From assembly GCF_004010195.1 (NCBI RefSeq), contig NC_057759.1, positions 2,213,199 through 2,277,198 on the forward strand: a stretch of DNA of 64,000 bases. Reading direction: 5' to 3'. The notes below the pieces were generated by a model. The model was not told where the DNA came from and ran no database searches. It worked only from the letters and a program-made list of their open reading frames with translations. Of the stretch, positions 2,141 through 59,682 are shown in pieces (positions within the stretch are counted from its first letter, which is position 1; every line of letters begins with the position of its first letter). This DNA comes from Chiloscyllium plagiosum (lineage: Eukaryota). The translations under genes were made by a program, and so were the position numbers.

Positions 2141-3734
2141 CATCGACAGTAGGCAAACAGTTGAAGAGATTCTCAGAGACAGGATTTACATATTTTTGAA
2201 AGGCCAGGATTGATTAGGGGGAGTCAACATGGCTTTCTGTGTGGGAAGTCATGTATCTCTGACTCAACTGAGTTTTTTTGAAATGGTGAAGAATAGGACT
2301 GATGAGGGAAAAGTGGTAGATGTGATCTATATGGCCTTCAGGTAAGGCGTTTGACAGGGTTCCCCATGGGAAATTGGTTAGCAAGATTAGATCACATGGA
2401 ATACAGGGAGAACCAACCATTTGGATACAGAACTTGTTCGAAGGTAGAAGACAGAGGAGTGTAAGTATCAAACTGTAATTATCAATCCAATAATCTGTGA
2501 ATACATGTGAGTGAATGCAGTTATTAATCTGTCCCTGGCACTCTCTGGTAAATGTTGGTCACACCACAGAACACTCTCTGGACAGGTTGGTTAATAACTC
2601 ACACATGCAGGTGTCAGTAAATTTCAGAGAAAGATTGATAACTACACTCTCATATTCACAAAGCAGAAACTGACATGAATAGAATGATTATGCTCCCAAT
2701 TTCAAATCACCTAAGTTGACATGTACACTTTGATAACGACATTCATATATTCACAGAGCAGAAACTGACAGATAGAGATTGATAACAAAGCAGAAATTCG
2801 TGGAAAATTCACAGGTGTGGCAGCATTTCAGGTCTAGTGACAGGTCCTCAGAACTGACGGTGGCAAGGAAAATGCACACAATGTGGTCTCCTCTATGTTG
2901 GGGAAACTGAATGTAGATTGAATGTAGAATGTTGCTGAACACCTTGCAGAACACCTACATTCTATCCAGAATGCTCCTCGGATGCTGCCTGACCTCCTGT
3001 GCTTTTCCAGCATCACACTAATCTTGCTCAAATTTTAACGTTAATCTCTCTCTTGCAGCTTTAATACTGTATTGTGGATTCTGTTCTATTTCCCTATGCA
3101 TTTTTTATGATATTATCTGCCTGTAAAGTACACAAAACAAAACTTTCCATTGTATCTCAGTGCATGTGACAATAATCAGATCAAATCAAATGGATAACTA
3201 TACTCACATATGCATAAAGTAGAATCTGAGAGATACAGGTCGATAACTACAGTCACACAAACTGACAGGGAAAGATTAATAAATACACTCAAACACTGAC
3301 ACTACAGAGCCTGACAGGGAAAGATTGATAGCTGATCTTTCACAGTCACAAATCAGAAACTGATTGCGACAGATGAAATCTCAGCTCACACATTCACATA
3401 GTAGAAACTGGAAGGATTGACAATTACACAAACATATTCACCAAGCAGAAACTGACAGCTACAGATTGACATCTATATTTATGTATTCACACAGCAGAGT
3501 CTGAAAGATACAGATTGACAGTTACACTCACTTTGACAAAGAAGAAATTGACAGGTAGAGAGTGATAACTGTACTCCCACATTCACATCACTGAAACTGA
3601 CAGCTAGGCTAACTAATACACCCACATTCACAGAGCAGAAGCTGATGGGTACTGATGAATAACTGTATTCACATATTAACAGGGAAGAAACTGACAGGGA
3701 CAGATTGGTATCTACACTGTCATATTGACATAGT

Positions 3735-4127
3735 TCAAAGTTTGTGCGAAGATTTGTAGCTCGGGTGCTCGTTGTTGTGGTTCTGTTCGCCGAGCTGAAA
3801 GTTTTTGTTGCAAACGTTTCGTCCCCTGGCTAGGCGACATCATCAGTGCTTGGGAGCCTCCTGCGAAGCGCTTCTTTGATGTTTCCTCCGGTGTTTATAG
3901 TGGTCTGTCCCTGCCGCTTCCGATTGTCAGTTTCAGCTGTCTGCTGTAGTGGTTGGTATATTGGGTCCAGGTCGATGTGTTTGTTGATGGAGTTTGTGGA
4001 TGAATGCCATGCCTCTAGGAATTCCCTGGCTGTTCTCTGTCTGGCTTGCCCTACGATAGTAGTGTTGTCCCAGTCGAATTCATGTTGCTTGTTGTCTGCG
4101 TGTGTGGCTACTAAGGATAGCTGGTCA
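3735..4127 (-). mobile_element. Penelope-like element 3' end (GIY-YIG C-terminus, pLTR, hammerhead); left arm of composite
   Basis: Reverse complement encodes HEFDWDNTTI..REFLEAWHSS..INKHIDLDPIY as in the 46.4-47.1 kb element; CTGATGA core at 3840-3846 (-). Confidence 0.9.
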
Positions 4128-4159
4128 TGCTAAATTACCCATAGTGCCCAGGGATGTGC

Positions 4160-4325
4160 ATGGGCATCTCATCCTAAAGATAACAGCGCTGACATGCACA
4201 ACACCTGCAATGCACCACTTTAATACGTGCCTGGATTATGTCGTATGTGCTCATTGGAGGGGGACTCAAAGCCACAATCGTCTGACTCCGGATGTGGAAA
4301 TGCTGGCAACTGAGTTACATCATAC
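4160..4325 (-). mobile_element. Decayed Deu-type (SacSINE1/AmnSINE-like) SINE fragment
   Basis: tatgtgctc..ggagggggactcaaagccacaatcgtctgactc..tgctggcaactgag resembles the reverse-complemented head as I recall it. Confidence 0.45.
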
Positions 4326-4817
4326 CAAGGGAGCCCTGGACCTGTCTGAGTGAGAGGGAAATGGCTGCAGAGCTCAATATGAGGGGAAGTAATATGGAGG
4401 CTAGAATTTGAAGAGGTCAAGTAAATTGTGTCATACACGATATTAATGTGTCGGAGACTGCAAGGAGGAAGAGTTAATATCAATGCAGGGAGAGCATGGA
4501 GGAGAAACATAAAAGAAAAACTAATAAGTTCAAGGCTGAAAGCTGAATCTGAGCTCAAGGATATTAGAGTCATAGAGTTATACAGCATAGAAACAGACCC
4601 TTCGGTCTAACTCGTCCATATAATATAGAACCTAGAACAGTACAGCCAATGATGTTGCACCGAACACAATGCCAAATTAAACTAATTCCCTCTGCCTGCC
4701 CTTGGTCCATATCCCTCCATTCCTTGCATATTCATGTGCCGATGTAAAAGTTTCTTAAATGCCCTATCTGCCTCCACCACCACCTCTAACAGTGCATTCC
4801 AGACTCCTACCACTCTC

Positions 4818-5150
4818 TGGCTCAGTGGTTAGCACTGCTGCCTCACAGCACCAAGGATCTGGGTTTGATTCCAGCCTCGGGTGACTGTCTGACTGGAGTT
4901 TGCACATTCTCCCCGTGTCTGCGTGACTTTCCTCTGGGTGCTCTGGTTTCCTCCTACAATCCAAAGATGTGCAGGTTAGGGCAATTAGCCGTACTAAATT
5001 GCCCATTGTGTTCAGGGATGTGTAAGTTAGGTGCATTAGTCTGAGGTAAATGTAGAATAATAGGGTCTGGGTGGGTTACTCTTTGGAGGGTCAGATTGGA
5101 CTTGTTGGGCCAAATGGCCTGTTTGCACACTGTTAAGGATTTTATGATTC
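4818..5150 (+). mobile_element. HE1 / V-SINE
   Basis: A-box TGGCTCAGTGG, B-box GGTTTGATTCC, V-domain TGGAGTTTGCACATTCTCCCCGTGTCTGCGTG. Confidence 0.9.
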
Positions 5151-5209
5151 TATCTCCTTTGAGCTTTCCCCCTCTCACCTTGAATGCATGCCCCCTAGTT
5201 TTAGGCATT

Positions 5210-5516
5210 TAATTCGACTGGGACAACACTACTATCATAGGGCAAGCCAGATAGAGAACAGCCAGGGAATTCCTAGAGGCATGGCATTCATCCACAAACT
5301 CCATCAACAAACACATCGACCTGGACCCAATATACCAACCACTACAGCAGACAGCTGAAACTGACAACCGGAAGCGGCAGGGACAGACCACTATAAACAC
5401 CGGAGGAAACATCAAAGAAGAGCTTCGCAGGAGGCTCCCAAGCACTGATGATGTCGCCTAGCCAGGGGACGAAACGTTTGCAACAAAAACTTCCAGCTCG
5501 GCGAACAGAACCACAA
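5210..5516 (+). mobile_element. Penelope-like element 3' end; right arm of composite
   Basis: Near-identical inverted partner of 3735-4127; hammerhead gca-CTGATGA-tGTCgcctagccaggGGAC-GAAA-CG-TT-tgc from 5445. Confidence 0.9.
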
Positions 5517-6819
5517 CATATTGACATAGTAGAAACAGATTGACAATGATACTCTGGGGTCAAATAGCAAAACCTGACAGATACTGTTTGATAATTGCAC
5601 TCACATATCGATATAGCTTAAACTAACAGGTAGAGATCAATATCTACATTCTCACAGAGTAAACTGATGGGAACAAGTTGATGACTGCATTTAATATTCA
5701 TACAGCAGAAACTGACAGGTCAAGACTAATATCAAAACTCACATTCTCATAGCTGAAACTGACAGGTTCAGGTTGAAAACTACACTCTCAGACACACAGC
5801 AGAAACTGTTCGGGACAGATTGATAAGTAAGACACACATATTCACTGGGCAGAAACTGACAGGTATGTATTGATAACTAAACTCGCATATCCACATCAGA
5901 GAAACACATAGGGACTGACTGTATTTATTGAAAATGAATGAAATCTATTTATCAACCAGTCCCTGGCAATTTCCTCTATGTGGATACACGAGTTCAGTTA
6001 TCAATCTGCATCTGTCGGTTTATGCTATGTGAATGTATGGTAAATATATTTACATTTTCTCATCACAGAGACAAATGGGGACAGACTGATAACTACACTC
6101 ATGACATTGTGGGCAGCACATGGACAATAGCTATTCCTGAAGGTCGTTGACCACCCCCTTCTCAAAGGGGCCTTCAGCCAGCGACATCCACGTCCCAGGA
6201 GTGAATAAACAAAAACAGCTGGCGTACAATACATCACAAGGTTTCTGTCTGCAGCATACGTGACACTAAAATCTTTCATCCACGACAAACTAAATCGAGT
6301 CTCAGAGATGTTGTTGCACACCTGGTCTTGACTTTTGCACGGGCCTCCTGACCCAGAAATAAGCTCAGACACTGTGGTGCAAAACTCTCTCCATCAGTAA
6401 TTTTCTCCTTCGTAAGAATGGTCCACGTATTCCATCTCTCTGTATGTTACTTTGGGAAAAGAGTTAATATTTGTGGATGAGGGGTCAGCAGGATTAAATA
6501 CCACAGTTAACATTCGATCTGACCATATGTTATCGAATGGGGGAGCACAGGGGATGGGCCGAGTGGCCGCCAGCTTCTCCGCCCCCTGATCAGATTGTGA
6601 GAGAGCCGGAGGGTGGAGTTATTAACATGACCCGGGAATGAACTCCATTGGAGCTTTATAAAGGGACAATGTCCCAGCTTGAAACGTTCCCTGCCGTTTC
6701 CCCAAAACCCCAGCTCCTTTCGTCAAAGTGAGTGAAAAGTGAATTGGGGAAATGACCAATTGATATTTGTTTCTGGGAGGCATTTGGAGAGCACCCCCCC
6801 CATGGGTATTGTTCCCGAG

Positions 6820-7876: not shown

Positions 7877-9988
7877 GTATGTTACTGCTGTCAGAGCATA
7901 GAATATTTCCACAGTCGCAGAGCTGATCAAGTAGATGTCAGACAAAAACAAGCACCTGACCATTCTCATCCCATTCAGCCAGCATTCCATTTCAATAAGT
8001 GTGTCATGGCAGCAGAAGATCTGCCAAGCCCACCTTTATCTCAACATCATTCTCAACTTGCTCACATTGCAGGAATCAAAATCATACTTTCTCTCGGCTC
8101 TTTGTTTCCAAGTTCACTTCAATTTTGTACAAAGTGCCCACATTCCCATTGACCCTCCCTATGAAATAATACAAGAAAACAGAATGTCATTTCTCCAAAT
8201 TAACAATGTAATCAAATAAGAACCTTTTAAACCAGTAGAGAAAGAATCTGAAATCTGGTAATTTGTAAAGTTTCTCATTTTATTTTGCAAGGAGTGTTCA
8301 ACCATGTTTAATAAATTTGCCTTGATGGTTTAGTTCTTCTCTACTGTCTGACAGAAATTACAAGTCCTTTTGCTTTCCTCATCCCCACCATAGAGCATTA
8401 TAAGGGTACCACTAATGGCTTGCCCCATCATACCGCAGAGTTATGTAACATTCACAATAGAATATTGATATGAATTAGATAATTCTCAGTCCAGTCGAAG
8501 GAATACTGTGGTCACTTAGCTGCAATACAGATTACGTGTTCATTGCCTTTCCCTTTAGACAATATAAAAGGAACTTAACACCCATCAATTTCTCATTATT
8601 ATTCATAAAATTATGTCACTGTGAGAAAAGCTGATGGCAACCTGAAGAACAACCCTTAATACCATTCCTCCCAGTTAGACTCTGCACTATAGGGGTTACT
8701 TAATCCATTGCTTTTCCATTACATAAAATAAATTCACTGTGAGAAAAACTGATAGGTACAGATTGATAACCACACTCTCACATTCACATAGCAAAAACTG
8801 ACAGTCGTAGATTGATAATGAGACTCTCAGATTAACAAAGCAAAGGTTGGCATATGTAGATTGATAGCTACTTTCATACATTCACAGAGAGGAAATAGTC
8901 ATACAGCACAGGAAGAGACCCTTTGGTGCAACGAGTCCATACCGACTGTGATCCCAAAAACAAAGGGGTCCCAGCTGCCTGCACATGGCTGATATACCTC
9001 CAAACATTTCTTGTTTGTGTACTGATCTCAATGATTTCTATAACCGTACCCACATCCACCACTTCCTCAGGAAATTCATTCCACATACGAACCATGCTCT
9101 TTGTAAAAAAAAAAAAATGCCCCCATACCTTTTTAAAAATATGCCTCTGAGTCTTGAAATCCCCCACTTTAGGGAAAAGACACCTGCCAATCACCTCATC
9201 CATACCCCTCATGATCTTATAAGTCTTTATAACTTACTGCACTCCAGTGAAAACTGTCCCAGTCAATCCATTCTCTCCCGATAACTCAAACCCTCCATTC
9301 CCAGCAACATCCTGGTAAATCTCTTCTGAGCCCTCCCCAACATAATAGCATAGACAGCCAAATATTGATAACTAAACTCTCATATTCCCATTGCAGGAAC
9401 AGATAGGTACCAATTGGTAACGACACTCACATACACAAATAGCAGAAAATGTCAAGGAGATATTGATAAATGTATTCACATATTCACAACACAGAAACTG
9501 ACAGGGACAGATTGATAAATGCACGCACACATTCGCAGAGTACTTACTATCATAGAAAGCTTGATAACAAATCTATTATATCCACAAAGCAGAAACTGAC
9601 AGGAACAGACTCCCAGAATAACGCTCCCGGTTTCACATTGCATAAACTGACAGGTACAGTTTGATAACTAATAACAGAGCAGAATGTAACAAGTACACAT
9701 TGATAACTATACTTACAGATTGATAAAGCAGAAACTAACACGTTTAGAATGACAACTCTAGCTACACATTCACCATCAGAAACTGAAAGTATGGATGCAT
9801 GATGATCCTCATACTCACATGGCAGAAACAGACTGTTACAGCTTGATAACTACAGTGACCCATTCACATTCCAGTAACTGACCGGGACAGATTAATAACT
9901 GCACACTCACATTCACATAACATAAACAACAATAACTTATCCCCCACCAATGTAAGACTCATCAGTCTAAATTCCTAGATTTCTTTGA

Positions 9989-10187
9989 TTCGGACTGGGG
10001 TGTACAATGTTAAAAATCACACAACACCAGGTTATAGTCCAACAGGTTTAATTGGAAGCACACTAGCTTTCGGAGCGACGCTCCTTCATCAGGTGATGAA
10101 CCACCTGATGAAGGAGAGTCGCTCCGAAAGCTAGTGTGCTTCCAATTAAACCTGTTGGACTATAACCTGGTGTTGTGTGATTTTTAA
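9989..10187. mobile_element. Palindromic PLE-derived mini-element with a hammerhead on each strand
   Basis: 87-bp inverted arms 10009-10095 / 10102-10188 (1 mismatch); cac-CTGATGA-a-GGAG..CTCC-GAAA-GC-TA-gtg; 15-bp TSD CCTAGATTTCTTTGA at 9974-9988 and 10188-10202. Confidence 0.85.
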
Positions 10188-12701
10188 CCTAGATTTCTTT
10201 GAACAGCCTTTCTTAAATAAAGACGCAATATTAGCCAACCTCCTGTCCTCCAGCATATCACCAATCACTGTTGGTGATAGAAATACTTCTGATAGGGCCC
10301 CCACAATAAATTCCCCAGCTTCCTGCAATGTCCTGGGATTCACTTGATCAGTTCCCAGAGATTTAGCCATCTTTATGTACTTTTACGCCCTCCTGCACCT
10401 CCTTCTGTCATGAGGACTGTTTTCAAGACACCAACATTTATTTCCCCAAGTTTACTAGCCTCCACAGAGGCAGACTGATAACTAAACTCACTATTTGAAT
10501 ATGAGAAACCGATGGGAGAGAATGATAATTACACACTTGTATTCATAAACCAGAATCTGACAGGTGTACATTAGTAACTGCAATCTCATATTCAGAGAAC
10601 AGAATCTGACAGGTACATATTGTTAACAAAACTCACATTCACCTTGCAGAAACTGACAGGTGTAGATTAATAACTACACTTTCTCATTCACCTTGCAAAA
10701 TCTGACAGGTACAGATAGACTCTCACATATTGATGTAGCAGACAGATCAATTGGCACAGCTTAATAACTGCAGTCCTACATTAGCATTGCAGAAAGTAAC
10801 AGATACTGATAACTTTATTCCCATTCACAAATCAGAAACTAGCAGGGACAGATTGATAACTGCATTCCCACATTTTTTTTTGTTTTCTTCATTCCTGGGA
10901 TGTGTGCATCACTTGACTATCCCTCATTCCATGTAGACCAGACCAGGTCAGGATAGCAAGTTTTGTTCCCTAAAGGTTCTGATTTTTTTTTCCCTGAGAA
11001 TTGGCATTAAACTCTTATTTTCAGATTATTATTGAATTAAAATTCCATCCTCTGCTATGATGGTATTTGAACCTGGATGCACAGAACGTTACTCTCTTGA
11101 TTTAATAATCCAGTGATAATATGACCAGGCCCATTGCCTTCCCTATTCACATTCACGTCGCTGAACCTAACAGCTTCACATTGGTAAGTACACTCTCAAA
11201 TTCATAGAGCAGAAACTGACAGGAACAGATCACTAACTGTACGTACACATTCATATTGCAAAAACTGGCAGGTACAGATTGATAATGGTACTCACATTCA
11301 CATAGCAGAAACTGGCTGATACAGATTGTTAACTCAATTTTTACATTCATATTGCAGAAAATGACAGGTATGATTTAATGAATATGTTGACATTTTTACA
11401 AGCAGAAACATTCAGGGATCGATTAATAACTGCAGTCACACAATCATGTAGCAGAAACTGAGAGGCATAGATTGACACCTGCATTCGTGTATTCAGATAG
11501 CAGAAACTGCCAGGCACAGGTGGATAACTACAAGAACTTTCTTATAGCATAAACTAACAGGTAAATATTTATAAACACACTTTCATATTCACAGAGAAAA
11601 AAACACTGTCAAGTACAGTTTGATAACTTCAAAACTACAGAACAGAATCTCACTGGTATATATTGGTAACTACACTCTCTCATTCACTGAGCAGGGATTG
11701 ACAGATGCAGACTGATAGCTACACTGATGCATTCACAACACAAACTTACAGGAACAGGTTGACAAATACCCTCATTCATTCACTTAAAACAAACTGACAG
11801 GTACAGATGGCAATGAAACTCTCATATTCACAGAGCATAAACTGACAAGTCATAAATTGATAACTTTACCCACACATTCATATTTACAGAAACTGACATA
11901 CATATTGCTAAAGGCATTCAGGCATTACCAAATGAGAAAGCTATGGCCAAGTGTTAATATCAGATACAGAGAACCGAAACTGACAGGGATAGATTGGGAA
12001 ATACACACGCACATTCACATAGCAGAAACTGACATATCAATATTGATAACTATATTGGGATGTTCACTTCATAAAGACAGATTGATAACCACACTCTCAT
12101 ATTCACTGAAGCGAAAAGGAGAGTTACAGATGAATAATTACACTCAGGTTCACAACATCAGAAACGGGTAGGAACAGATTGATAACAACATTCACACGTT
12201 CAGATTGCAAAACCTGTCAGTTACAGTTTGATATCAACACTCACATAATCACATCACAGAATCTCACAGGTATATAATGAAAAGTGTATTCACATTCACC
12301 TAGCAGAAATTGACCAGTTCACCCTCACACATTCACACTGCAGAAACTAACATGCATAGATGGATAACTATGCTCAAACATTTACATGACAGAAACAGTC
12401 AGATTGATGACTGCACTCACATATTCACAGAGCAGAATCTGACAGATAGAGATTAATAATTATATTTCAATATTCACAGAGCAGAAACTGACAGGTTTAC
12501 AAATTGACAATCTCATTCACATATTCACAGCACAAATACTGATGAGGAATGATTGATAAATACACTGTCATATTCACCAAGCAGAAACTGTCAGATACAG
12601 ATGGATAGCTATATTTACGTATTCGTAAGCCAGAGTCTGGGTCCAGGTTGACAACTAAACTCACATATTGAAATAGCAGAAACTGCCAAGTAGAGACTGA
12701 T

Positions 12702-12921
12702 GTGTTGAAACTTTATTGCTGGAACAGCACAGCAGGTCAGGCAGCATCCAGGGAACAGGAGATTCGACGTTTCGGGCACAGGCCCTTCTTCAGGAATGAA
12801 GAAGGGCCTGTGCCCGAAACGTCGAATCTCCTGTTCCCTGGATGCTGCCTGACCTGCTGTGCTGTTCCAGCAATAAAGTTTCAACTTTGATCTCCAGCAT
12901 TTGCAGACCTCACTTTCTCCT
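12702..12921. mobile_element. Palindromic PLE-derived mini-element with hammerhead (second family)
   Basis: Perfect 89-bp inverted arms 12704-12792 / 12797-12885, loop GGAA; minus strand attc-CTGAAGA-a-GGGCctgtGCCC-GAAA-CG-TC-gaat; 16-bp TSD CCAAGTAGAGACTGAT at 12686-12701 and 12922-12937. Confidence 0.88.
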
Positions 12922-15900
12922 CCAAGTAGAGACTGATAACAACCCACACATTCTCATAGCTCAAACTGCTAGGTCCTGGTTTGTAACTACACTGACATTC
13001 AGATCTAAAAACTGATAAGTACAGATTAATAACTATGTTCTCAGATACACAGAGGTGACACTGACAGAGACAGATTGCTAATTACACTCTCATAGTCACA
13101 TAACAGGAACTGACAGGAACAGATTAATAACAACAGCCACACTTTCACATAGCATCAACTCACAGGAACAGATTGATAACTACACTCAGTTTCACACATC
13201 AGAATCTGACAGGTACATTTTGATAACTGCATTCACACATTGCCTCGGCAGAGGCTGATCAGCATAGATTCAAACCTGTGCTCACATATTCACAATGCAG
13301 AAACTGACAGATACAGTCCCATATATGCAGAGAAAGGTTTCTGACAAGTACAATTTAATAAGGACACTCAAATATTCACAAGGCAGAATCTTACATGCAT
13401 ATATTGATAATAACACGCACATTCACCTTGCGGAAACTGACAGGGAAAGATTGATAAATACGCTCACACATTCATATTGCACAGACTGACGGGGACGGTT
13501 GTTTATATAATTCTCTTACTTGCACAGCAGAACTGGTCCAGAATAAAATGACAATTACATATAATATTCAACAAGCAAAACGGACAGGAATAGATTGGTA
13601 TGTACATTTACATATTCACACAGCAAAATCTGACAGGGACTAGCCAAAACCAAACTGTCAGATACACTCCTAACAGGAACTGTCAGGTACAGACTGATCA
13701 ATGCATTCACAAAACCAAAACTTGAGAGTAACAGATTGATAACCAAACACTCTAATTAACAGAGCAGAGCCTGATAGGGAAAGAATAATACCCTCTTGGT
13801 TTCACATTGCAGGGACGGATATCGTCACATTGATGAATACACCCACATTCACAGAGCGGACATGGATAGGTACAGATTGATAACGACACACACAGATTCA
13901 CGTAACAAACTGGCCTGGACAAATTGATAACTGCAATTGAATATTCGCACAGCAGAATCTGAGAGTCATAGACTAAAACCTGCACTTTCCTCACTGATAG
14001 GTACTGATAGGTACAGGTTGATAATTACAATCATACATTCACATTGCAGTAATTAACAGGGGCATGTTGATGACACTCACTTGGTCACATGACAAAACTG
14101 ACGCGGAGAGACAGAAAGTGACGGTCACATTCACACAGCACAATCTGACAGTTACAGATTAATATAAACATTCTTGGATGAACAGAACAGAAACAGAAAG
14201 GGACAGGCTGGTGAGTAAACTCACACATTCATATTATAGAGACCGGCAGGTATATTATTAGTAGCTATATATTGATATTATGTAGCTAAAGCTGTAGGTA
14301 AACATGGACAACTACATTCACATATTCATACAGAAGAACTTGATAGGAACAAATTGAAAACTGCATTTGTATATCCACAAACCCAGAGACTGACAGGACA
14401 GATTGGTCCCTAAATTCACAGATTGATACAGCAGAAACTGTCAGTTAGAGACAGATAACAATACTAACATTCTCATAGCTGAAACTGTCAGAGACAGGTT
14501 CATAACTAAACTTACACACTCACATCCCAAAAACTGACAGGTACAGAGTAGTACATACATTCACACATTCACAAACCAGAAACTGACAAAGACAGATTGG
14601 TAAGTACACTCATGTATGCATTTCGCAGTAAATGTCAGAGAAAGATTGATAACTGCACTGTCATATCCACAATGCAGAAACTGATAGGTGCAGATTGATA
14701 ATAACACTACCAGATGCATGTAGCATAAACTGACAGGGATAGAAGGATAATTACACGTAAATTGACAGGTACAGTTTGATCAAGGTATTCACACATCAAA
14801 AACAGGTTAATAACTGGACTCTCAGATTCTAGAACAGAACTTGGCAGGTACAGATCGATAACTGCATTCACATACTCATTAAAGAATCTGACAGGTACAG
14901 ATTGATATGGACAGCAGAAACTGGTAGACATAGATTGATACCTGGACTCAGCAAAAACTGAGAAGCACTGGGTGATTAAAAATAGTTAACACATTCACCG
15001 AGCAGAAAGTGACAGATACACTTTGATAACAATGCTCTCATAATCACATAGCAGGGATAGATTGGTAACTACATTCAAATACTCAGAGAGCAGAAAATAA
15101 CATAAACAAATTTACAACAAACTTACATATACACAGAGCAGAATCTGACTAGATCATATTGATGACTACACCTACGCATTCACCAAGCAGGAACTAAGTG
15201 TTATAGATCAACAACTAAATTGACATCGCAGAAACTGAGAGGCCAAGATCGGAATGTGCACTCGTATGTTTGCAACAGAAAATGACAGTCATAGCTTGAT
15301 AACTACACACTGATTTTCACATAATGGTGACTGAGAAATGCATCTTAATAACTGCAGTCACACATTCTCATTGCAGTAACTGACATGGACATATTGGCTA
15401 CGGATTACATTGACAGGTAGAGACTGATAGCAACAGTCACATAAGGAAGTGACAGGTGCAGATTGATAAACACACACATATTCAAAGAGCAGAATATGAC
15501 AGGTAAAGAATTGACAACTACACTCAAGTGTTGACAACAAAGAAACTGACAGAAACGGAATACAACAACCACAATCTCAATGCTGAAACTGACAAGTATA
15601 AGTTGATAACTACATTCTCATATTCACAAAACAGAAAGTGACCAGAACAGATTAATAATAACACTCCTGGTTTCACATATCCAAATGTACCTCTCAGGTT
15701 TTGATAACTACACTCACACTCGCCAAGCAGGAATTGACAGTGATAGATCAATAATTAAATTCACATTATGACACAGCAGAAACTGAGAGGAATACACTGG
15801 CACCTGCATTCATACATTCACATAGCAGAAAATGACAGGCATAGATGGGTAGTCACACCCGCACAGAAGAAACTGACTAGAACAGGTTAACAGCTATATT

Positions 15901-17140: not shown

Positions 17141-17319
<179 letters not shown>

Positions 17320-17354
17320 GGGACCGCACTGCACTGAAACACACACATCCACAA

Positions 17355-20509: not shown

Positions 20510-21470
20510 TGTTTTTAAAATAGGATCCCTACAATGTAGAAACAGGCCCTTCAGCTAAACAAGTCCACACCGAGCCTCCGAAGAGTAACCAACCCAGACC
20601 CATTCCCCTACACTGTATTTCCTCCTGACTAATGCACCTAACCAAGAATTTGGAGGAGCCACTGGGGCTGACAATTTTGAAGATAACGTATCACCAGGTT
20701 ATGATCCAACAGCTTTATTTGTAAGCACTAGCTTTTGGAATGCTGCTCCTTCATCAGGTGGTTGTGGAGTACAATGTTATAAGACACTGAATTTATAGCA
20801 GAAGATTACAGGGTCATGCAGTGATATATTGAGCAAACTGAATTATTAAGTCTTCCATTTTTTTGGAATGTGTGCAAGTTTCGGTTCAATGCGGACAGTC
20901 AATACATGTAATATTTTGTAAAGTCCACTTTGGAAATAGAACCAACCTGGCTCAGGATTGGGATACAAACAGACTATCATCTGAGCTGAAATGTCACTTT
21001 TTGAATTAAAACATTAAGTTACCTTGAGAAGGTGATTTAAAAGAAGTTCTCAGATTTGCTTATTAATGAACTGAAACTTGCAACCCATTCTAAAGATGAA
21101 AGACTGAATCCAGATTTATTTAATTTATTACTGTATGACACTGTCGTCGTTTGCTATCAATTTTGTGTCTTATGATCCTGATTCACCACTACCTGCTGAA
21201 GGAGCAACGCAGTGAAAGCTAGTGCTTCCAAATAAATCTGTTGGACCATAATCTGGTGCGTGATTTTTAACTTTGTGCACCTAACGTACACATCTCTGAA
21301 CACCATAGGTAATTTAGCATAACCAATTCACCTAACCTGTACAGCTTTGGATTGTGGGAGAAACCCACGCAGATATGGGGGAATATGCAAACTCCAAACA
21401 GATATTGCCCGAGGCTAGAATCGAACCTGGTCACTGGCACTTTGAGGCAGCAGTGCTATACAATGTGCTG
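20510..21470 (-). mobile_element. HE1 SINE split by a PLE insertion
   Basis: SINE 3' part ~20510-20642 and 5' part ~21276-21470 are contiguous once the insert is removed. Confidence 0.8.
20643..21275. mobile_element. Older, longer member of the 9989-10187 PLE family with inverted hammerhead-bearing ends
   Basis: Ends CACCAGGTTATGATCCAACAG..TCCTTCATCAGGTG and CCTGCTGAAGGAGC..GAAAGCTAGTG..GATTTTTAAC; TSD TGCACCTAAC at 20633-20642 and 21276-21285. Confidence 0.75.
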
Positions 21471-22970: not shown

Positions 22971-24660
22971 ATCTGCACACTCACTTCCAATGACTGGCAT
23001 ATAGAGGACACCCAAATCTGATTTGACATCACCCTTTCTCATACTTAGACTTTGTTGTCACGTGTACTCAAGGCACCATCTTAGGTACAAGTAAGTAGGT
23101 ACAGAATCATAAGAACAGGGTAAAAAGAAAGAACGTTACAGTAATTTTTTTTAAGTAGAAAAATGAAGAAATAAATCGAGAAGTCAAACATTCCAGTCTT
23201 TTGAAAGTGTTTAGCCACTCTGGGATTGCACGTGCTACAAGGGTCCAATCTCCTCCTCTTTGCCATACTTTGTCCACACAGCCTATTCCAGGACAGCCCA
23301 CACTAGGTCACCCACACCACTGCTGAAAGAACTGCTGTTCCTTCTGATCTACCCAGTGTATGGATTCAGGCCTAACGCATTGCTGCAGCTATCTGATGCC
23401 AATCACAGATGCTGCCTTCTCCATTGACTGCAGAGGCTCCTTGTTGTTGAAAGCCAATGCCAATGCTGTCTTCTCGAGTCCTGCACTGAACTCACCGATG
23501 TCGAAGACAGCCACGCTGGTGCCAGTACTCAAAGTTTGGAGCTTGTACTGGTGAACTTTAATCTATTTTCTCTCTGCTGAAGAGGACAGGGCAATCACAT
23601 AATTGCGTGTATCCCATGAATGTTGAGCTGTTGCCTCCAGTGAGACATTCCCTCTGTCGGGGTAACACATATGGAATATTGCACTGTGCCCTCGGTCTTT
23701 TGTAAAAAAACAAATTTCCAGTCACAGTTCTGCCTATTGTACACTGCGCAGTGAGATGCAATTCCAAGATGACACTGATACCCAGCATCTGAAATACCAA
23801 TGCAGTTTTACTTCCTTGCACATTTTCTCTTCTTTCCATTGAACCAAGCAATTGCAACATTGCTTTCACGCATCTTGCGAAAAAAAAAGCACTCCACTGA
23901 CTGCAGTGCAAGTCCTTCAAAAGATTTTTTAAAAGAGAGAAGTGTCGAAATAAGGAAGTAGTGTGCAGATTCTTACGGAGTTTGTCAGTGCAATTCACTC
24001 ACTCTGTTGGAGAGGCTGCTAGCTTCAGGACTGTTTCTTTTCTGGAAATAATTGACACCTATCCCTTCTTGTGGTGAAGTGTTATGTGCGAACATTAGCT
24101 GGATTCTCCCATTCCATCAACACAGTAAGTAAATCACCAAATGATTTATTAAGTGCCTGAATTCTGGCACAAGTTCACTAAGACACATTGTCCGATGGTG
24201 TAGCATTTCAGTACTTTACTTGACCAGTCTTTCATTAGAGTTGCTGTCTAATTAGTGCATTTTTCTCACACAGTTTAAGACTTATTGTTTGTGATTTGAA
24301 CCTTTTTTACTTTTAAATCTGACTGAGTGTAACTCCATTCTTAGCATTATGTTAGGCAACAAATCCTTCCCAACGGGATAATACGTGAGGGGTGATCATT
24401 CACATTAAACCAGGGCTGAGCAGTGACAGTGTTAATGCAATTTTGATGGATGTGCACTCCTTTATGGCAATCTCTTAAACAACGTGTCTTTACTGCAACA
24501 TACTTTAATCCTAAAAAAACATAATACTCAACATTTAATCAGGAAATATCTTATCTGTCTGTCTATCTATCTGATTAATATTGTCCAAACTATCCATCGA
24601 TCCTATCAAATCTACCCTCACATACATAATTTCTTCACTGAGACTCCAACTTACTTGGAG

Positions 24661-24870
24661 GAGAAAGTGAGGACTGCAGATGCTGGAGATCAGAGCTGAA
24701 AATGTGTTGCTGGAAAAGCGCAGCAGGTCAGGCAGCATCCAAGGAACAGGAGAAACGATGTTTCGGGCATAAGCCTTCCTGAGGAAGAGCTTATGCCCGA
24801 AACGTCGATTCTCCGGTTCCTTGGATGCTGCCTGATCTGCTACGCTTTTCCAGCAACACATTTTCAGCTT
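24661..24870. mobile_element. Palindromic PLE-derived mini-element with hammerhead (12.7-kb family)
   Basis: Inverted arms around 24775; CTGAGGA (24779-24785)..GCCC-GAAA-CG-TC; 14-bp TSD CAACTTACTTGGAG at 24647-24660 and 24871-24884. Confidence 0.85.
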
Positions 24871-25249
24871 CAACTTACTTGGAGTGTACATGAAATAAAA
24901 GAGTTGTTAATGCCGCTTTTCCAGGCCAGGAGATAAATTACATTGTTTTGAAGCTGTCATTTACAGAAACACATTTTTGTCAGATATCCTTACTGAAAAT
25001 ACTTGCTTCAATAAAGCTTGACTCAGTCATTTCGAATCTTCAGTTCCTCCTTGAGACCAAGGACAGCTGGCGTCTAATCTCACACAGTACGTTTTCATAA
25101 CCACGGCATTCATTCAGAGAACAAGTCTTTGAGCCGACATGTCTATAAATTGTGCGTTTCCAAGCAGCGTTTCATAATTAGGAAAGGAAAATAGTTTAGT
25201 ATAATTCTGAGAGAAAAGAAACAGAAAGTGCTGCTTTCGCAAGGGAGGA

Positions 25250-32272: not shown

Positions 32273-33966
32273 TTAATTATCATTTGTTACTTCTGCATTT
32301 TTCTTATATGTCGCTTCCAAATTGACGAGCATCTTTCCCGAAATTTCATTTATTTTGGAAATCACCCTGAGGTCACTTATTGCTTCATTGTTTAACAGGT
32401 AGAGCCCTTCTCTCTGATTGCTCTTTAGGGGCATTTGTTTCATTAAGGCTGTCTCAATCAGTCTTTGGGTGAGCCCTGCAATACAGGGTATGATGCAACA
32501 GTCAATGGCTACCGATACCCCGGCTACTACTATCAGGGAAGTAAGGACGAAAACCACCATCCCATTCCATTTTCCAAACCATGATTCAAGCCATCCTGTG
32601 AGAGATGTGTCAACCTCTGAATTCTCAGCCAGTTCCTCTGCTAAGGTAGTCAACCCCCTTACGGCCCGAGTAATTGAACCATCAGGTGCAGTGTTATTAG
32701 AATAAAGGTACAACAGCTTCCTCCTAACATAACACACATACATACCATTTTTCTGCTAGAATCATATCAAGGGCCATTCTGTTTTCCCATGCCATCCTAC
32801 TTGTCGCATCAAGCTGTTCTGCTATTCCTTTAACTGCATCTCTTGTATAATTTATAAATTGCTGCTGATTATAGAAAATGTAATTTATCCAATCTACATT
32901 TTTATTAATCGTTACCCACCAAAAAGAGCTGACTCAAAGCCTGCTGCAATCTGGTTGCGAGCCTTGAACTCATCCGGTAACCCCCCTCTTGGAACTCCTA
33001 TAGAGTCTAGATAAATCCTGCCATCAAAAGAGGTGCCTAATAATGATCTTTTACTTCTTCCCTTTTTCTCTACTATCTTGTCCTTCTCAAAAGCCAGGGT
33101 AAATTGAATTATCAATTGTACAATTGCACATATCCCTCTCCAATCCAGAGGTGGGGTGTGTCACAATACTTTGCCTCCACAGTACCACCACAGATCCGCT
33201 CGGGGAACCTTTAGTGCTAAGTAGTTCCCTCCCTTGTCCGTTTCAGTGACATTCTTAATCTCTGTACACAATTTCACCTCCCCCAAGTCTCTGGACCGAT
33301 TTGTACCTCGCCAACAAACACGACGTGTGATTTCCAACTGCAGCTGAAAACGTAGGGGGGCTTTTAAGTCTTTCTTCTCCAAGGGAGGGAACATCAGAGA
33401 TAGGGAGGTACACTTCCTATCATTCCATGCAGTCTCATCCTGGTACAGAGCTATCATACATTTCATGCCTTTCCTGTCTCGCTTCCACCGAAGTGGAAAG
33501 GGAACTACCTGGGCCACTGGCCTACCGGAGGCACATGCATAGCAATTGCTTTTGTTCAGACTTTTTACAGTATACTTTACCCATTCAACCCAGGCATTTG
33601 CATCCCCGTACCCAGTTTCTATTTCGTGGTTTTCTCTATCGTTAGGTATATTGAGTTATGCTCTTTATTGGGACAATCGAGAGCTGGTCGGAAGGGGGCC
33701 TGGTGTACTGTGACGAGACGAATATAACAAGTACCATCTCCAAGGTCATCCCCAAAGGACTTAAGATGTATCTCTGAGCTGCGGTACTGTCTCTGATTAT
33801 CTACATCCCCACAATTTACTAAACTGCATGCAGCAGCGTCTATTACTTGCGGATTATCAGACTCAGGAACCGTTAATAACACATATGAAAATAATGTTTG
33901 ACAAAATCCCAATATTAAGAGAGCTTGTACCATAACCCTAAGCACCCAGAGCATTCTAAAAATCAT
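32273..33966 (-). pseudogene. env: Class I ERV env (ERV-Pb/PABLB-like TM), frameshifted
   Basis: Signal-like N-terminus, CYAC CXXC motif, furin site RSKR, YLDSIGVPRG..PDEFKARNQIAAGFES, ISD WENRMALDMILA, CX6CC (CVMLGGSCC), NNTAPDGSITRA, hydrophobic TM. Confidence 0.92.
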
Positions 33967-45418: not shown

Positions 45419-45844
45419 GTGAGTGAACCGAGTGGCCGCGGTGCGGTGGGAGGTGTGGGGAGAGTCTAACACGGGATGGAAACCATAGTTCACTAGCGCT
45501 GATCTGGCTAAATGGAAATCGTGTCTTTCGTTTCTCATCTTGAAACCAATCAGGACACTTTGCAAGAGTTCTAACTTGAGCGGGAGCAAATTGACATTGG
45601 CTATGGAAGAGAGGGGATTGATTGGCTGTCTGGTTCCTATGGAGGACGTGACGGTCAATGCAACTGCTCAAAATAGGCCTGAAATCTTCACGTCATCTTC
45701 TATAGCTTTTAGAATAATCCCAGTTTTTCTCTCCAAATTTATCTACTGGAAATGAGGGTGAGTTTCAAGAGGAGTGTTCCACGATTAGTAAACCACCGAT
45801 ATTCACCTCTGCCCTAATCTTGAGACCAGATTCTAACTGAAGTA

Positions 45845-47141
45845 GTTCTGTTCGCCGAGCTGGGAATTTGTGTTGCAGACGTTTCATCCCCTGTCTAGGT
45901 GACATCCTCAGTGCTTGGGAGCCTCCTGTGAAGCGCTTCTGTGATCTTTCCTCCGGCATTTGTAGTGTTTTGTATCTGCCGCTTCCAGTTGTCAGTTCCA
46001 GCTGTCCGCTGCAATGGTGGGTATATTGGGTCCAGGTCGATGTGCTTATTGATTGAATCTGTGGATCAGTGCCAAGCCTCTAGGAATTCCTTGGCTGTTC
46101 TCTGTTTGGCTTGTCCTATAATAGTAGCGCTGTCCCAGTCGAATTCATGTTGCTTGTCATCGGAGTGTGTGGCTACTAAGGATAGCTGGTCGTGTCATTT
46201 CGTGGCTAGTTGGTGTTCATGGATGCGGATCGTTAGCTGTCTTCCAGTTTGTCCTATGTAGTGTTTTGTGCAGTCCTTGCATGGGATTTTGTACACTACA
46301 TTTGTTTTGCTCATGCTGGGTATCGGATTTCTGGGTATCCAGAAAGAAGGACCAAATACCCANNNNNNNNNNNNNNNNNNNNNNNNNNNNNNNNNNNNNN
46401 NATGTATTCGCCAAAAACGGATACCCGCGCAATTTCATCAACAGATGCCTAAGGGAAAGACAATGGAATGAGGACATGCCACAACCCAAAGGACTAGCCA
46501 CACTACCATACATCAGGAGCATTTCCGAACTGACAGCCAGACTACTGCGACTATTAGGACTCATAACAGCACACAAACCAACAGCTATTCTCAGACAACA
46601 ACTCACCGGGACGAAGGACCCAATACCCAGCATGAGCAAAACCAATGTAGTGTACAAAATCCCATGCAAGAACTGCACAAAACACTACATAGGACAAACT
46701 GGAAGACAGCTAACGATCCGCATCCATGAACACCAACTAGCCACGAAGCGACACGACCAGCTATCCTTAGTAGCCACACAAGCAGATGACAAGCAACATG
46801 AATTTGACTGGGATAACACTACTATTATCGGAAAAGCCAAACAGAGAACAGCCGGGGAATTCCTAGAGGCATGGCACTCATCCACAGATTCAATCAATAA
46901 GCACATCGACCTGGACCCAATATACCGACCACTGCAGCGGACAGCTGGAACTGACAACAGGAAGCGGCAGATTCAAACTACTACAAATGCCGGAGGAAAG
47001 ATCACAGAAGCGCTTCACAGGAGGCTCCCAAGCACTGAGGATGTCACCTAGACAGGGGACAAAACGTCTGCAACACAAATTCCCAGCTCGGCGAATAGAA
47101 CCACAACAACGAGCACCCGAGCTACAAATTTTCTCACAAAC
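45845..47141 (+). mobile_element. Penelope-like retroelement with inverted 5' copy; RT thumb and GIY-YIG endonuclease
   Basis: FAKNGYP..LPYI..NVVYKIPCKNCTKHYIGQTGR..RIHEH (46402-47051); 45845-46330 is its inverted repeat; hammerhead motifs at ~45880-45912 (-) and ~47035-47068 (+, GAAA mutated to AAAA); 39-N gap inside. Confidence 0.95.
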
Positions 47142-47249
47142 TGGAGATAATTTGGATGTCTGTGGCCTCTGCCTATTTAATTTGGCCTAATTCTGTGCAA
47201 GGGTTTTGCATTTGCTGGGTGCGTGTAATTTGATTGTTCTCAGTCTGTG

Positions 47250-51279: not shown

Positions 51280-51650
51280 GGTGTGAAAATGACTCCAGGA
51301 AGCTATAGAATGAAAAATAGACCTATAGGTCAGCCAGATGGATCTCGTAGAAAACGAATGTCCTAATTGAAGTCGTTATCCTGGCCTGATCAGGGAATCA
51401 GCGCTGAAAATGTGTTGCTGGAAAAGCGCAGCAGGTCAGTCAGCATCCAAGGAACAGGAGAATCGACGTTTCGGGCATAAGCCCTTCTTCAGGAATGATC
51501 AGGGAATCCTGCTGGTAAATATAAGCAGGAATGTCAGTGGTTGTGCTTTCTGTAGGAGCCGGCTCTGTGTTAGTAGTGTTTGGGTCATGACTGTGCACAT
51601 GTCAAAAAATGGTATCTTGTTGAGTGGATATTAGCTTCGTGGAGTTATTT
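51280..51650 (+). mobile_element. Diverged solo LTR of the Gypsy family, interrupted by a PLE arm
   Basis: ggtcagccagatggatctcgtagaa..aatataagcagga..ggagccggctctg..ggagttatttta. Confidence 0.5.
51400..51495 (-). mobile_element. 96-bp single-arm hammerhead element
   Basis: Minus strand attc-CTGAAGA-a-GGGCttatGCCC-GAAA-CG-TC-gatt; 13-bp TSD TGATCAGGGAATC at 51387-51399 and 51496-51508. Confidence 0.85.
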
Positions 51651-57300: not shown

Positions 57301-58380
57301 TCAGTTTCTGCAATGTGAATGAGAGTATAATTATCAGTCTCTAGCAGTCAGCTTCTCCAACATCTATATGTGATGTTAGTTATGGAGCTGAACCTCTGTT
57401 AGTTTCTGTCAATATGAATGTGTGAGTGTCATCATCAATCTGTCCCAGTCAGTTTCTGTAATGTGAATGGGTGTGAGTAGATATCAACCTGCAACTGTTT
57501 CTGCCATGTGAATATGAGTTGAATATGAGAGTGTAGTTGTCAGGCTTTGTTTGTCAAACTGAGTATTGTTATCAATCTATACTTGTCAGATTCTGCTGTG
57601 CTTTATGCAATATGAAACTGAGTGTTATTGCTAATCTGTTCCTGTCAGTTTCTGCTTTGTGGATATGATACATTTGTTATCAAACGTTCCCTGACAGTAA
57701 CTACAATGTGAATGTCAGGGTGTATTTACTAATTGTTCCTATCAGTTTCAGCTCTGTATATTTAAGTGTGCAGTTATTAATCTGTAACTTTCAGTGTCTG
57801 CCATGTGAACGTGTGAGTGCATTTATCCTATCAGCTTCTTGCTAATCTGTTCCTGTCAGTTTCTGCTTTGTGGATATGATACATTTGTTATCAAACGTTC
57901 CCTGACAGTAACTACAATGTGAATGTCAGGGTGTATTTACTAATTTGTTCCTATCAGTTTCAGCTGTGTGTATTTAAGTGTGCAGTTATTAATCTGTAAC
58001 TTTCAGTGTCTGCCATGTGAATGTGCGAGTGCATTTATCCTATCAGCTTCTGTGTTACGAATATGTGAATGTGCTTAACAATTTGTACCTGCCAGTTCTG
58101 ATATTTAAATATCATCCTCAATTTCTCCTTATCGATTTCTCCTATATGTGTTACCGTGTGCAGTTAGTAATCTGTACATGAACTTTTCTGCAATTTGAAA
58201 ATTAGAATATACTTACCAATCTGACTGCTCTGTAAATGTATAAGTAGAGTCATCAAACTATACATGCCAGCTTCTGCTTTCTGACTATGAATTTAGATAT
58301 TAATCTTTGCCTGTCAATTTCAGCTACGTGAATGTGTGAGTGCACTTATCAATATGTACCTGTTAGTTTTTGCTCAGTGC
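54389..58380 (-). repeat. Diverged ~47-50 bp minisatellite array 3 (inverted paralog of array 2)
   Basis: GTTATCAATCTGTACCTGTCAGTTTCTGC units with landmarks collinear to 9.4-13.8 kb. Confidence 0.92.
56458..56785 (+). mobile_element. HE1 / V-SINE
   Basis: Head, V-domain and GAATTGGCCATGCTAAA body; absent from the paralogous array. Confidence 0.85.
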
Positions 58381-59682
58381 ATTTGATTTGTGTCATGGAT
58401 TGTGCAATGGGAAATTAAAGGGTTTTCCAACTCCTATAGTGCAGACTCAAACTGGCAGGAATGATACCATGGGCTGTTCTTCAGGATGTCATCAGTTTTT
58501 CCTCAGTGCATAGCTACATACTTTTGTGAATAATGTTGAGAAATGGATAGGTGTTACATTCCTTTGGTAGTGTCAAAATGAAAGGGGAACAAACAAATAA
58601 ATTGTATTGTAGCCGATTGACCACAATGTTTCTGCTACAGGAAAGAGAATTGGCTAGTTCACTTCATTATTCTATTGTGAGTATTACATAATCCTGCTCT
58701 GTAGTGTGATGGTGCAAGCCATTAGCAGTACTCTCCTGGTGCTCTATGGTGGCAATGAGGAAAGCGAAAACACTTGTATTTTTGTCATGCAGCAGAGAAG
58801 ATTTAAATCATTCAGGCAAATTTATTGAACTCTTCTTTCAAAAAAAGGAGAATTTACAAATTAATTTCTTTGTTGAATTAAAGGGTGATTACTTGATTAT
58901 ATTGTTAAATTGACGATATGACATTTGATTTTCTTCCTTGTTTGTGATATTTCATAGGGTGGGGAATTTGGGATTCTTTGTAGAAGATTAAAGTGAATTT
59001 GGAGACCAAGTTACACATTGTTTAATTAAAAAATGAATACTGGGCAGTGTGAAAATGTAATTTCTATCCATGCAAGGTGAATATGTTGAGATCAAGGTGG
59101 GGTTGGCAGCTCCTCTGCTGCCATGACACACTTAGTGAAATGGAATGCTGGCTGAATGGGATTTAGTTGCTTGTTTTTGTGTAAGCATTTCGTAAATATT
59201 CATTTCTGTTTCCTCCAGTGTTAATGTGTGTACATCGCTGTTAGTTTCTGTATCTTGGGTGTTGATATGATGGTTCAATCTGAATCAGTCAGTACCTTTG
59301 TGTGTGTGTGTGTGTGCTCAGTAATTATTCACTACTTGTCACATATGGTTGTTGACATCATGCTTTTACATAATTTCATTGTTTGTCCAATTGTGACATT
59401 TAAAATTCCCGTTTAAAATGTAAACTTGATTTAGTACACCAATTGCCTACATCAGACAACCAGTCAGCTTCAAAAATACTGTGAATGGTTGTGGCCTATG
59501 AATCATATCAATTGAAACTGGGAAGATGTCTATGGAGAATGCAGAGAAAAAAGAAACTTGTCTTTCCGCAATTGTATCTGACTGTTTGCTTGTTTGGATA
59601 TATCTCTGGAAATTGAGCTCAAACTAAGTCTGATCCAATCAGTTCTGTATCTGTGCTTTCAGCTTTGACAGTGGTGACATAC

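Follow-up and report, generated by a model that had tools for sequence, protein, structure and literature searches.

The 64-kb window analyzed here, a stretch of 64,000 nucleotides from Chiloscyllium plagiosum, contains a short palindromic insertion at positions 9974–10202. It is bounded by an exact 15-nt direct repeat, the target-site duplication (TSD; left copy 9974–9988, right copy 10188–10202), and the insert between the repeats measures 199 nt (9989–10187). Two inverted arms of 87 nt each, 99% complementary to one another, face each other across a 6-nt spacer. The left arm (10009–10095, minus strand) is, by arm comparison and contigs, a putative inverted and 5′-truncated end module (pseudo-LTR, pLTR) of a Penelope-like element (PLE) family; the right arm (10102–10188, plus strand) is correspondingly the direct copy, ending at the tail-less end of the family and sharing base 10188 with the TSD. 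The spacer is the head-to-head junction (10096–10101), with loose contig ends at 10095, 10097, and 10099. The only mismatch between the arms, at 10117, is private to this copy. Upstream of the hammerhead core described below, the left arm reaches 3–5 nt and the right arm 3–6 nt.

A tail of 20 nt (9989–10008, minus strand) is found on the left side only and is assigned to the inverted copy from loose ends at 9992 and contig comparison. Its base 10008 is a private change that differs from 97% of the depth in DNA run X1, and X1 record 1 carries 16 unplaced letters after 9994. In the family as a whole, the tail measures ∼35–38 nt, as judged from the loose ends at 9992; the focal tail appears to be this tail with ∼15 nt missing internally, between two GGA triplets. 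Compared by eye with the consensus of the loose ends at 9992, the final three bases of the left TSD coincide with the distal end of the family's tail, possibly reflecting microhomology used for priming.

The insertion splits a decayed CR1-type LINE reverse-transcriptase (RT) fragment on the minus strand (9930–10440, bounds approximate). The right flank shows 51% identity over 61 aa to a CR1-type RT frame of the window that itself matches Pfam RVT_1; upon removal of the insert in silico, the match spans the repeat (50% over 64 aa) and resumes after a 1-nt shift. In a second species (organism B), the site appears to be empty, with the repeat present as a single copy, and hence the 15-bp TSD is taken to be real. 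Repeat and frame comparison thereby confirm the anatomy given by an earlier sequence-only reading—the TSD, the 87-bp arms with one mismatch, the one-sided tail, and the CR1 relic. In X8, the flank contig ends at 9973, and no listed contig continues it. RNA depth on the flanks of the locus was nil in the one poly(A) run examined, which does not speak for silence elsewhere.

A scan of the window for minimal hammerheads gave three matches, two of which are the focal arms (cores starting at 10105 on the plus and 10092 on the minus strand); block-shuffled controls (n = 50) gave 0.02 matches on average, never with a palindromic stem III. The claim of a hammerhead motif with a CAC/GUG stem I on each strand thus stands. 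Each motif consists of CUGAUGA, an extra A, stem II, GAAA-GC-UA, the 3-bp CAC/GUG stem I, and a palindromic AGCU and, hence, contains the features of a minimal hammerhead, i.e., CUGANGA, stem II, GAAA, UH, and a stem I closing both ends. The left-arm motif (10061–10095, minus strand) has a stem I of 3 bp, a stem II of 5 bp, and AGCU as stem III, with a predicted cut between 10064 and 10063. In the right-arm motif (10102–10136, plus strand), predicted by scan and fold to be cut after 10133, the change at 10117 reduces stem II from 5 to 4 bp. Comparison with Rfam covariance models, proposed earlier as a check, did not add support, as none of the 11 matches at E ≤ 10 in positions 8000–12000 was to a hammerhead family. 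The type I core, the unpaired base before stem II, the G10.1–C11.1 pair, the palindromic stem III positions (AGCU in the focal arms and ACGU in the window's other end families), and the dual motifs on opposite strands are all shared with known minimal hammerheads of PLEs. Known dual motifs lie ∼100 to 700 bp apart and mostly belong to truncated PLEs (PMC4209133), whereas the focal cores are spaced by 12 nt. Stem I has 3 bp here, compared with 4–5 in Schistosoma families and 2 in Drosophila virilis, and stem II has 4–5 bp, compared with 7–8 in Schistosoma.

As RNA, the palindrome folds with −169.5 kcal/mol (z = −26.8), and 0 of 200 shuffles folded as well. The hairpin most likely buries both hammerheads and is predicted to be inert as a ribozyme, since any read-through transcript would form the 87-bp duplex; adopting the hammerhead fold in such RNA costs 55.8 and 59.6 kcal/mol. 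Nor does the idea hold that the opposite-strand hammerheads act as a dimer, because any transcript carries one sense motif together with its antisense, which pair with each other. The AGCU stem III duplex contributes only −2.5 kcal/mol in the energy model, and cofolding of two monomers yields an alternative duplex instead of a dimeric hammerhead, in a model that does not score the active fold, so that the cofolding result counts neither for nor against it. Plausible effects of the hairpin are that it provides a double-stranded RNA substrate and one poly(A) signal per strand.

Three further palindromes of this kind occur in the window, and the four have four different centers. An older copy of the focal family (20633–21285) spans ∼630 bp and has inverted arms that run >100 nt upstream of the hammerhead, a 10-bp TSD, and a tail on the left; its anatomy is otherwise that of the focal copy, and six-frame translation gave no readable ORF in it. 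The other two belong to a second hammerhead-bearing end family. One is a 220-bp palindrome (12686–12937) with a 16-bp TSD, a tail on the right, and arms of 89 nt that are 100% complementary, its right core missing C3. The other, of 210 bp (24647–24884), has a 14-bp TSD (17 bp with one mismatch), a tail on the left, and arms of 81 nt that are 94% complementary, with no core in the left arm. A solo arm has a TSD of 13 bp. A frame next to a different end family of the window gives a weak GIY-YIG match (E = 0.039, below cut-off).

The family to which the focal arms belong is very abundant, as seen in contigs from three DNA runs. Loose ends at 9992 number 642, 328, and 617 contigs in these runs, in addition to 171 RNA reads, and one consensus continues for ∼23 nt; at 10188, beyond which the flanks are unrelated, there are 541 (X1) and 553 (X10) loose ends. 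The family thus has two fixed ends with unrelated flanks beyond, at 10009/10188 and ∼23 nt past 9992. Of the arm copies in the window, roughly half have their start no more than a few bases from the hammerhead core, and the truncation point is therefore probably nonrandom. At the center base 10098, the summed depth amounts to 0.8%, 0.2%, and 0.4% of that at 10059 in the three DNA runs, or 255 to 2,400 single-copy depths; depths summed over contigs do not give copy numbers. Hundreds of such minimal palindromes, if not more, seem to be present in the genome. Exact-pattern scans for the arms in metagenome, viral, and prokaryote collections, which are uninformative for a vertebrate repeat, gave no match.

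RNA reads of the family, which derive from the family and not from the focal locus, place a polyadenylation signal AUUAAA at 10052–10047 on the minus strand, which some family members carry as AAUAAA, and an addition site at ∼10032–10035. A T run is attached at 10032 or 10035 in 429 plus 363 of 2,149 reads, and the mirror position on the plus strand is 10145–10165. The family RNA is, hence, polyadenylated ∼30 nt beyond an uncut hammerhead site, which suggests that the end module plays a part like that of the R region of retroviruses and that each palindrome introduces a terminator signal on each of the two strands. Read counts do not fall across the cut site (1,165 followed by 1,184), where a cut 3′ piece of ∼30 nt would escape the poly(A) library. 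Upstream of the core, 312 and 557 reads run on into family sequence, and no pile-up of RNA starts is listed there in this 3′-biased library; the RNA thus lends no support to a transcript start upstream of the core. A>G changes occur at 22 places in the RNA, compared with 3, 4, and 7 in the DNA runs; other types of change are raised as well, and the reads come from many loci. A-to-I editing of the family RNA is thus a lead only.

The focal palindrome is very probably an insertion of an endonuclease-type (EN+) PLE, i.e., a direct copy with an adjacent inverted, 5′-truncated copy, a one-sided tail, and a short TSD of variable length. Published PLE insertions carry an inverted pLTR, a 30–40-bp tail at one end, and a TSD of 8–10 bp (PMC3846280; PMC8557442). 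The focal copy resembles such units (Arkhipova et al. 2013; Craig et al. 2021) in its head-to-head arrangement of a direct and an inverted 5′-truncated copy, its one-ended tail (herein a 20-nt remnant), its short TSD, and its junction palindrome. It differs in that its copies are cut to 87–93 nt without an ORF and in that its TSD has 15 bp, against 8–10 bp in the rotifer examples. It is, hence, ordinary: the published inverted-pLTR, tail, and TSD insertion at minimal size. That the usual endonuclease-type PLE unit was here cut down to a 90-nt end module is very probable from its sequence, and the earlier proposal that a Penelope-like insertion carrying an inverted 5′ copy was truncated to an extreme degree is backed by both the anatomy and the variable centers. 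Motif and anatomy are the basis for assigning the family to PLEs; no ORF of the family was recovered, and its clade and mobilizing enzyme are accordingly putative. Animal non-LTR retrozymes (PMC7229834; bioRxiv 10.64898/2026.07.22.740005) are likewise short, noncoding, PLE-related, and equipped with a type I hammerhead. However, they are head-to-tail tandems with hammerheads on one strand and a circular RNA, whereas the focal unit is arranged head to head and is self-masking; no head-to-tail tandem with same-strand hammerheads was found at 9974–10202.

Overall, the best explanation, with a probability of about 0.85, is a single recent PLE insertion that was made in trans and was dead on arrival. 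The RT/GIY-YIG endonuclease of an endonuclease-type PLE would nick both target strands 15 nt apart, as suggested by the TSD and by an in vitro precedent in another PLE. Each 3′ end would then prime cDNA on the element RNA, one at a distal start that gives the tail and the other at a proximal start, as inferred from the two fixed family ends ∼35–38 nt apart. Synthesis would halt immediately upstream of the hammerhead, possibly on reaching the 5′ end of the RNA, and the two strands would be joined head to head via snap-back or microhomology. The sequence shows that the template was uncut RNA, since the part of the core that precedes the cut site is retained in both arms. This two-strand route, taken as a whole, is somewhat favored. 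The precedent is the Poseidon element PAc of Anolis (Frangieh et al. 2024, PMC11167929), which has two adjacent RT start sites that define the tail, cutting and extension of both target strands in vitro, an uncut RNA template, and a hammerhead that needs protein. The two fixed ends of the focal family resemble these start sites. The tail-side junctions here show 3–7 nt of identity between target and template in three cases judged by eye; PAc, by contrast, begins at a nonhomologous site. In the sections of that work consulted, inverted copies are not linked to the extension of both strands. Being single weak cases, a cap-derived G at 10098 and start-site motifs at the arm ends were dropped.

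Alternatively, the inverted arm may arise by self-priming, i.e., from an antisense template or by snap-back of the first cDNA, with the endonuclease trimming the second end; the antisense-template version was proposed for rotifer Penelope (PMC3846280). Consistent with such a fold-back, the focal arms are identical except for the one private change and have their subfamily features in common, and the centers at 12797 and 24775 can be drawn by eye as short snap-back hairpins. However, in the palindromes at 12686 and 24647, the tail lies on one arm and 4–10 extra core bases lie on the other (by eye), so that neither arm can simply have been copied from its partner. One fold-back alone could not produce this distribution. 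It would have to be combined as a hybrid, with snap-back at the center and priming at the second nick, which forms part of the best explanation. The unique family sequence in each arm of these two neighbors thus favors priming on both strands of the target rather than a simple fold-back, which we consider unlikely though a serious contender; in the focal copy, the corresponding difference is weak (1–3 nt).

The sequence-only reading had also offered a replicating, nonautonomous ribozyme hairpin with a MITE-like appearance, a unit with a fixed center. Three palindromes of 199–220 bp in 64 kb fit this idea, as do small indels at 10098 in contigs of all three DNA runs, including a 4-nt loss that leaves a perfectly palindromic center (depths 736, 70, and 637). 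It fails, however, in the comparison of centers: of 597 joints listed, the 15 displayed all run head to head from left to right arm and have different centers, as do the four palindromes of the window. Among these 15, 11 recur in at least two runs and seven in all three DNA runs, and 14 are flagged "between: not known"; tandem, noninverted joints are listed too. Only six RNA reads cover 10098, compared with ∼1,380 at 10059, and the tail lies on either side in different copies. The similar sizes are explained by the two arms both ending close to the core, and the 87-bp duplex would be expected to mask the RT start region. A replicating fixed-center unit is accordingly judged highly improbable.

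An assembly or library fold-back artifact is hardly credible. Library preparation can produce perfect palindromes, and no contig among those listed spans the whole element. However, both junctions are found in contigs of the independent-looking DNA run X1 (records 1 and 6, the latter covering 10165–10372), a TSD with a canonical tail is not expected from such an artifact, the arms differ at one base, and the site is apparently empty in the second species. A DNA-transposon MITE or microRNA precursor, suggested by inverted arms with a TSD and by Rfam microRNA models scoring 43 bits on the hairpin, is just as remote and largely refuted by the varying TSD length (10, 14, 15, and 16 bp; 13 bp for the solo arm) and by the existence of single arms as well as long copies, the termini being asymmetric through the tail and the score reflecting pairing only at about half of the gathering thresholds (81–90 bits).

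How PLEs produce the inverted copy and the one-sided tail is stated as an open question in PMC8557442 and PMC11167929. Among the nonsubscription papers listed, which included recent work on mechanism and on shark repeats, no description of PLE twin priming, strong-stop products, MITE-like palindromic PLEs, or pLTR polyadenylation was found. The value of the present locus is that of a probe: in a minimal palindrome with a clean TSD, the two priming sites and the joint are all preserved within 200 bp, and by comparing the arm that carries the tail with the arm that reaches further 5′, fold-back can be separated from two-strand priming by sequence alone. As a long shot, a shared-center subset of the two-hammerhead hairpins, such as those with the perfectly palindromic center left by the 4-nt loss at 10098, might be retranscribed and reinserted by a PLE enzyme as a 200-nt nonautonomous element; if true, this would be a retroelement that is only a ribozyme hairpin.

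The palindromic insertion consists of a 199-nt insert flanked by an exact 15-nt direct repeat (9974–9988 and 10188–10202), its target-site duplication (TSD). Its inverted arms, 10009–10095 and 10102–10188, are 87 nt each, differ by one mismatch and lie 6 nt apart; a tail of 20 extra bases is found on the left side only. The elements described by the sequence-only reading (arms, one mismatch, hammerheads, tail, TSD, and CR1 host) are all present. The predicted fold of 9974–10202 has an energy of −169.5 kcal/mol (z −26.8). Both strands of the window hold three minimal-hammerhead matches (mean of 50 shuffles, 0.02), two of which are the focal arms. The Rfam search of the focal region proposed by the same reading detected no hammerhead family. 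The focal motif fits the minimal hammerhead as described in PMC4209133, with stem III being AGCU versus ACGU in the other end families of the window. Exact 15-mer repeats spaced 150–315 nt form 11 runs in the window, one being the focal TSD and one bordering a second palindrome. The right flank aligns with a CR1-type reverse transcriptase (RT) frame located elsewhere in the window, and removal of the insert lengthens the CR1-type RT alignment over the TSD from 61 to 64 residues; after a 1-nt shift, the next conserved stretch follows.

Four coded runs were aligned to 9850–10450 at 88% likeness. In DNA run X1 (organism A), a single contig (10165–10372) joins arm, right TSD, and flank, and another comprises the left flank, the left TSD, and six inserted bases, followed by 16 unaligned letters. 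In DNA run X10 (organism B), a contig aligned from 10188 onward begins with 37 non-arm letters, exactly the length of the left flank 9936–9973 minus one base lost at 9940. It has a 30-letter overlap with the two left-flank contigs, as expected for contigs from 31-letter words. Judged from lengths and overlaps rather than from the letters themselves, organism B would carry an unoccupied site that holds the 15-mer once. In DNA run X8, the flank contig ends at 9973. The focal 15-nt repeat is therefore a genuine TSD, and the insertion probably postdates the divergence of organisms A and B. The insertion is real, recent, and ordinary in kind. Two bases are private to this copy, the one mismatched at 10117 and the one at 10008; at 10263, where all three DNA runs have C, the A of the window is either a private allele or an assembly error.

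Over the focal arms, contig depth sums to 1–5 million in X1 versus ~6 on the unique flank, which marks a very abundant repeat, although such depth does not measure copy number. By type, the repeats look similar to those of cartilaginous fishes. At a fixed family end, 10009 and its mirror 10188, ~480–550 contigs each in X1 and X10 exit to unrelated sequence (agreement 0.37–0.38), and other contigs (642 in X1, agreement 0.67) continue past 9992 via a common stretch of ~23 nt. These two family ends, ~35–38 nt apart, are the tail of a Penelope-like element (PLE), ascribed to two RT start sites by Frangieh et al. (PMC11167929). By eye, the focal tail is the family tail minus ~15 nt between two GGA triplets; the X1 animal may carry the full tail here, its 16 unaligned letters fitting the 15 lost plus one.

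Start points were compared, mostly by eye, for fourteen arm copies of the focal and second families in the window (4 + 10 from two analyses). Relative to the first core base, seven begin between ~6 nt upstream and 8 nt downstream, probably joined by an eighth at 49028; three extend further upstream, and three begin at least 30 bases downstream, by position alone. The 5′ truncation is nonrandom, and unrelated palindromes all measure ~200 bp because their arms stop close to the hammerhead core. Since arms end upstream of the core, away from the cut site, the template is uncut RNA, as it is for PAc, the Poseidon element of Anolis (PMC11167929). The family RNA was taken from a poly(A) single-cell run (X21, ~2% read), of which 2,149 of 12.96 million records aligned; the focal flanks received none of them and the centre base 6. 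T runs are attached at 10032 or 10035 (429 + 363 reads), 12–15 nt past AUUAAA and directly before a GU-rich stretch; the DNA has no A run there, so family copies, rather than this locus in particular, supply a working poly(A) site ~30 nt past the cut site. RNA depth does not drop across the predicted cut site. Poly(A)-ended RNAs stop 23–26 nt before the arm end without the tail and therefore cannot be copied from their own 3′ end; an upstream repeat of a transcript would serve as template instead. X21 family reads over 10009–10188 show A>G at 22 places versus 3–7 in the DNA runs, possibly A-to-I editing of duplexes formed by the family, a signal confounded by the origin of the reads from many loci.

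Each arm runs antisense to the element from flank to centre, and this orientation looks like that of cDNA whose synthesis was primed at a nick in the target. For PAc, both target strands are cleaved and extended, two start sites are used, and a dimer is modelled (PMC11167929). We infer the nick geometry, the reason synthesis stops, and the way the strands join: in the simplest account, two nicks would lie 15 nt apart in opposite target strands, one cDNA would begin at the distal site, giving the tail, and the other at the proximal site, and both would halt near the 5′ edge of the hammerhead before being joined. The TSD, the two family ends, the uncut template, and the arm asymmetry are shown by the sequences; two-strand priming, pure or hybrid, is given a probability of about 0.55. 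The asymmetry is seen in two palindromes of a second family, 12686–12937 (16-bp TSD, 89-nt perfect arms, tail on the right) and 24647–24884 (14-bp TSD, 81-nt arms, tail on the left). Their centres can be drawn as short snap-backs, and a hybrid of snap-back and two-strand priming is plausible. The published alternative, self-priming on the antisense template (PMC3846280, in its Discussion), in the form of a simple fold-back requires one arm to contain all of the other, but it fails in both: at 12686–12937, the left arm has 4 additional core-side bases, and at 24647–24884, the complete core sits in the right arm and is missing from the left. The focal copy shows the same polarity by 1–3 bases only, too small to discriminate, and the older focal-family copy at 20633–21285 (10-bp TSD, tail left, arms >100 nt upstream of the hammerhead) is too decayed. 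The arms of the latter are only ~76–81% alike despite the perfect TSD and may derive from two different template copies. In both second-family palindromes, the tail-adjacent TSD end starts with the identical 7 bases (a similar 3-base match in the focal copy), reflecting either tail pairing with the target at priming or target preference.

A hairpin scan of the window (at least 25 pairs, loop up to 30) found exactly three, the focal one and those at 12686–12937 and 24647–24884; a solo second-family arm lies at 51387–51508 (13-bp TSD). Centres differ among all window palindromes, with none in common. Among 597 joints over the four runs, the 15 shown all lead head-to-head from left to right arm and lie at different positions, 11 in at least two runs, 7 in all three DNA runs, and none in the RNA run; 14 are flagged "between: not known," and some further joints are tandem. 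With centres varying, which the sequence-only reading had itself taken to mean independent truncations, the window palindromes are independent events; its extreme truncation product is upheld, and its replicating, MITE-like ribozyme hairpin fails by that criterion. A subset of hairpins with one common centre, though unlikely, would accord with a depth at centre base 10098 of 255–2,400 single-copy depths and with a perfectly palindromic centre, shorter by 4 nt, that all three DNA runs contain, but that depth is below 1% of the depth at 10059 (0.8%, 0.2%, and 0.4%), part of it bears differing small indels, and the joints shown share no position.

A transcript through the palindrome contains one sense motif and its complement. 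By RNA folding, adopting the hammerhead structure takes 55.8 or 59.6 kcal/mol in read-through RNA, with stem probabilities of zero, and 6.6–8.0 kcal/mol in single arms; the two focal motifs are thus predicted to be unable to act as a dimer in cis.

A third end family that carries hammerheads, likewise with inverted arms, occupies 3721–5530 (14-bp TSD, 3721–3734/5517–5530) and 45842–47142; the latter adjoins a frame with a weak GIY-YIG match (46128–47051) and spans an assembly gap (46363–46401). A long decayed tandem array (~8400–14700, 49-bp unit, 60–85% alike) hosts the inserted CR1 relic and two palindromes, and a second block lies in opposite orientation at ~54700–58700. Two stop-free minus-strand frames (32273–32755 and 33161–33655), for which Pfam gave no match above cut-off, resemble a retroviral envelope remnant, and ~17150–17320 (plus strand) looks like a fragment of a histone H2B pseudogene with an internal deletion.

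By its anatomy, the focal insertion appears to be the insertion unit of an endonuclease-positive PLE, as described in PMC3846280 and PMC8557442. Minimal-hammerhead pairs on opposite strands, 100–700 bp apart, are already reported in PMC4209133, and the focal pair is their short extreme. MITE identity was rejected, as was retrozyme identity, retrozymes being tandem with hammerheads on the same strand (PMC7229834). The lasting value lies in arm asymmetry as a test of how PLEs insert and in the poly(A) site within the hammerhead-bearing end module.
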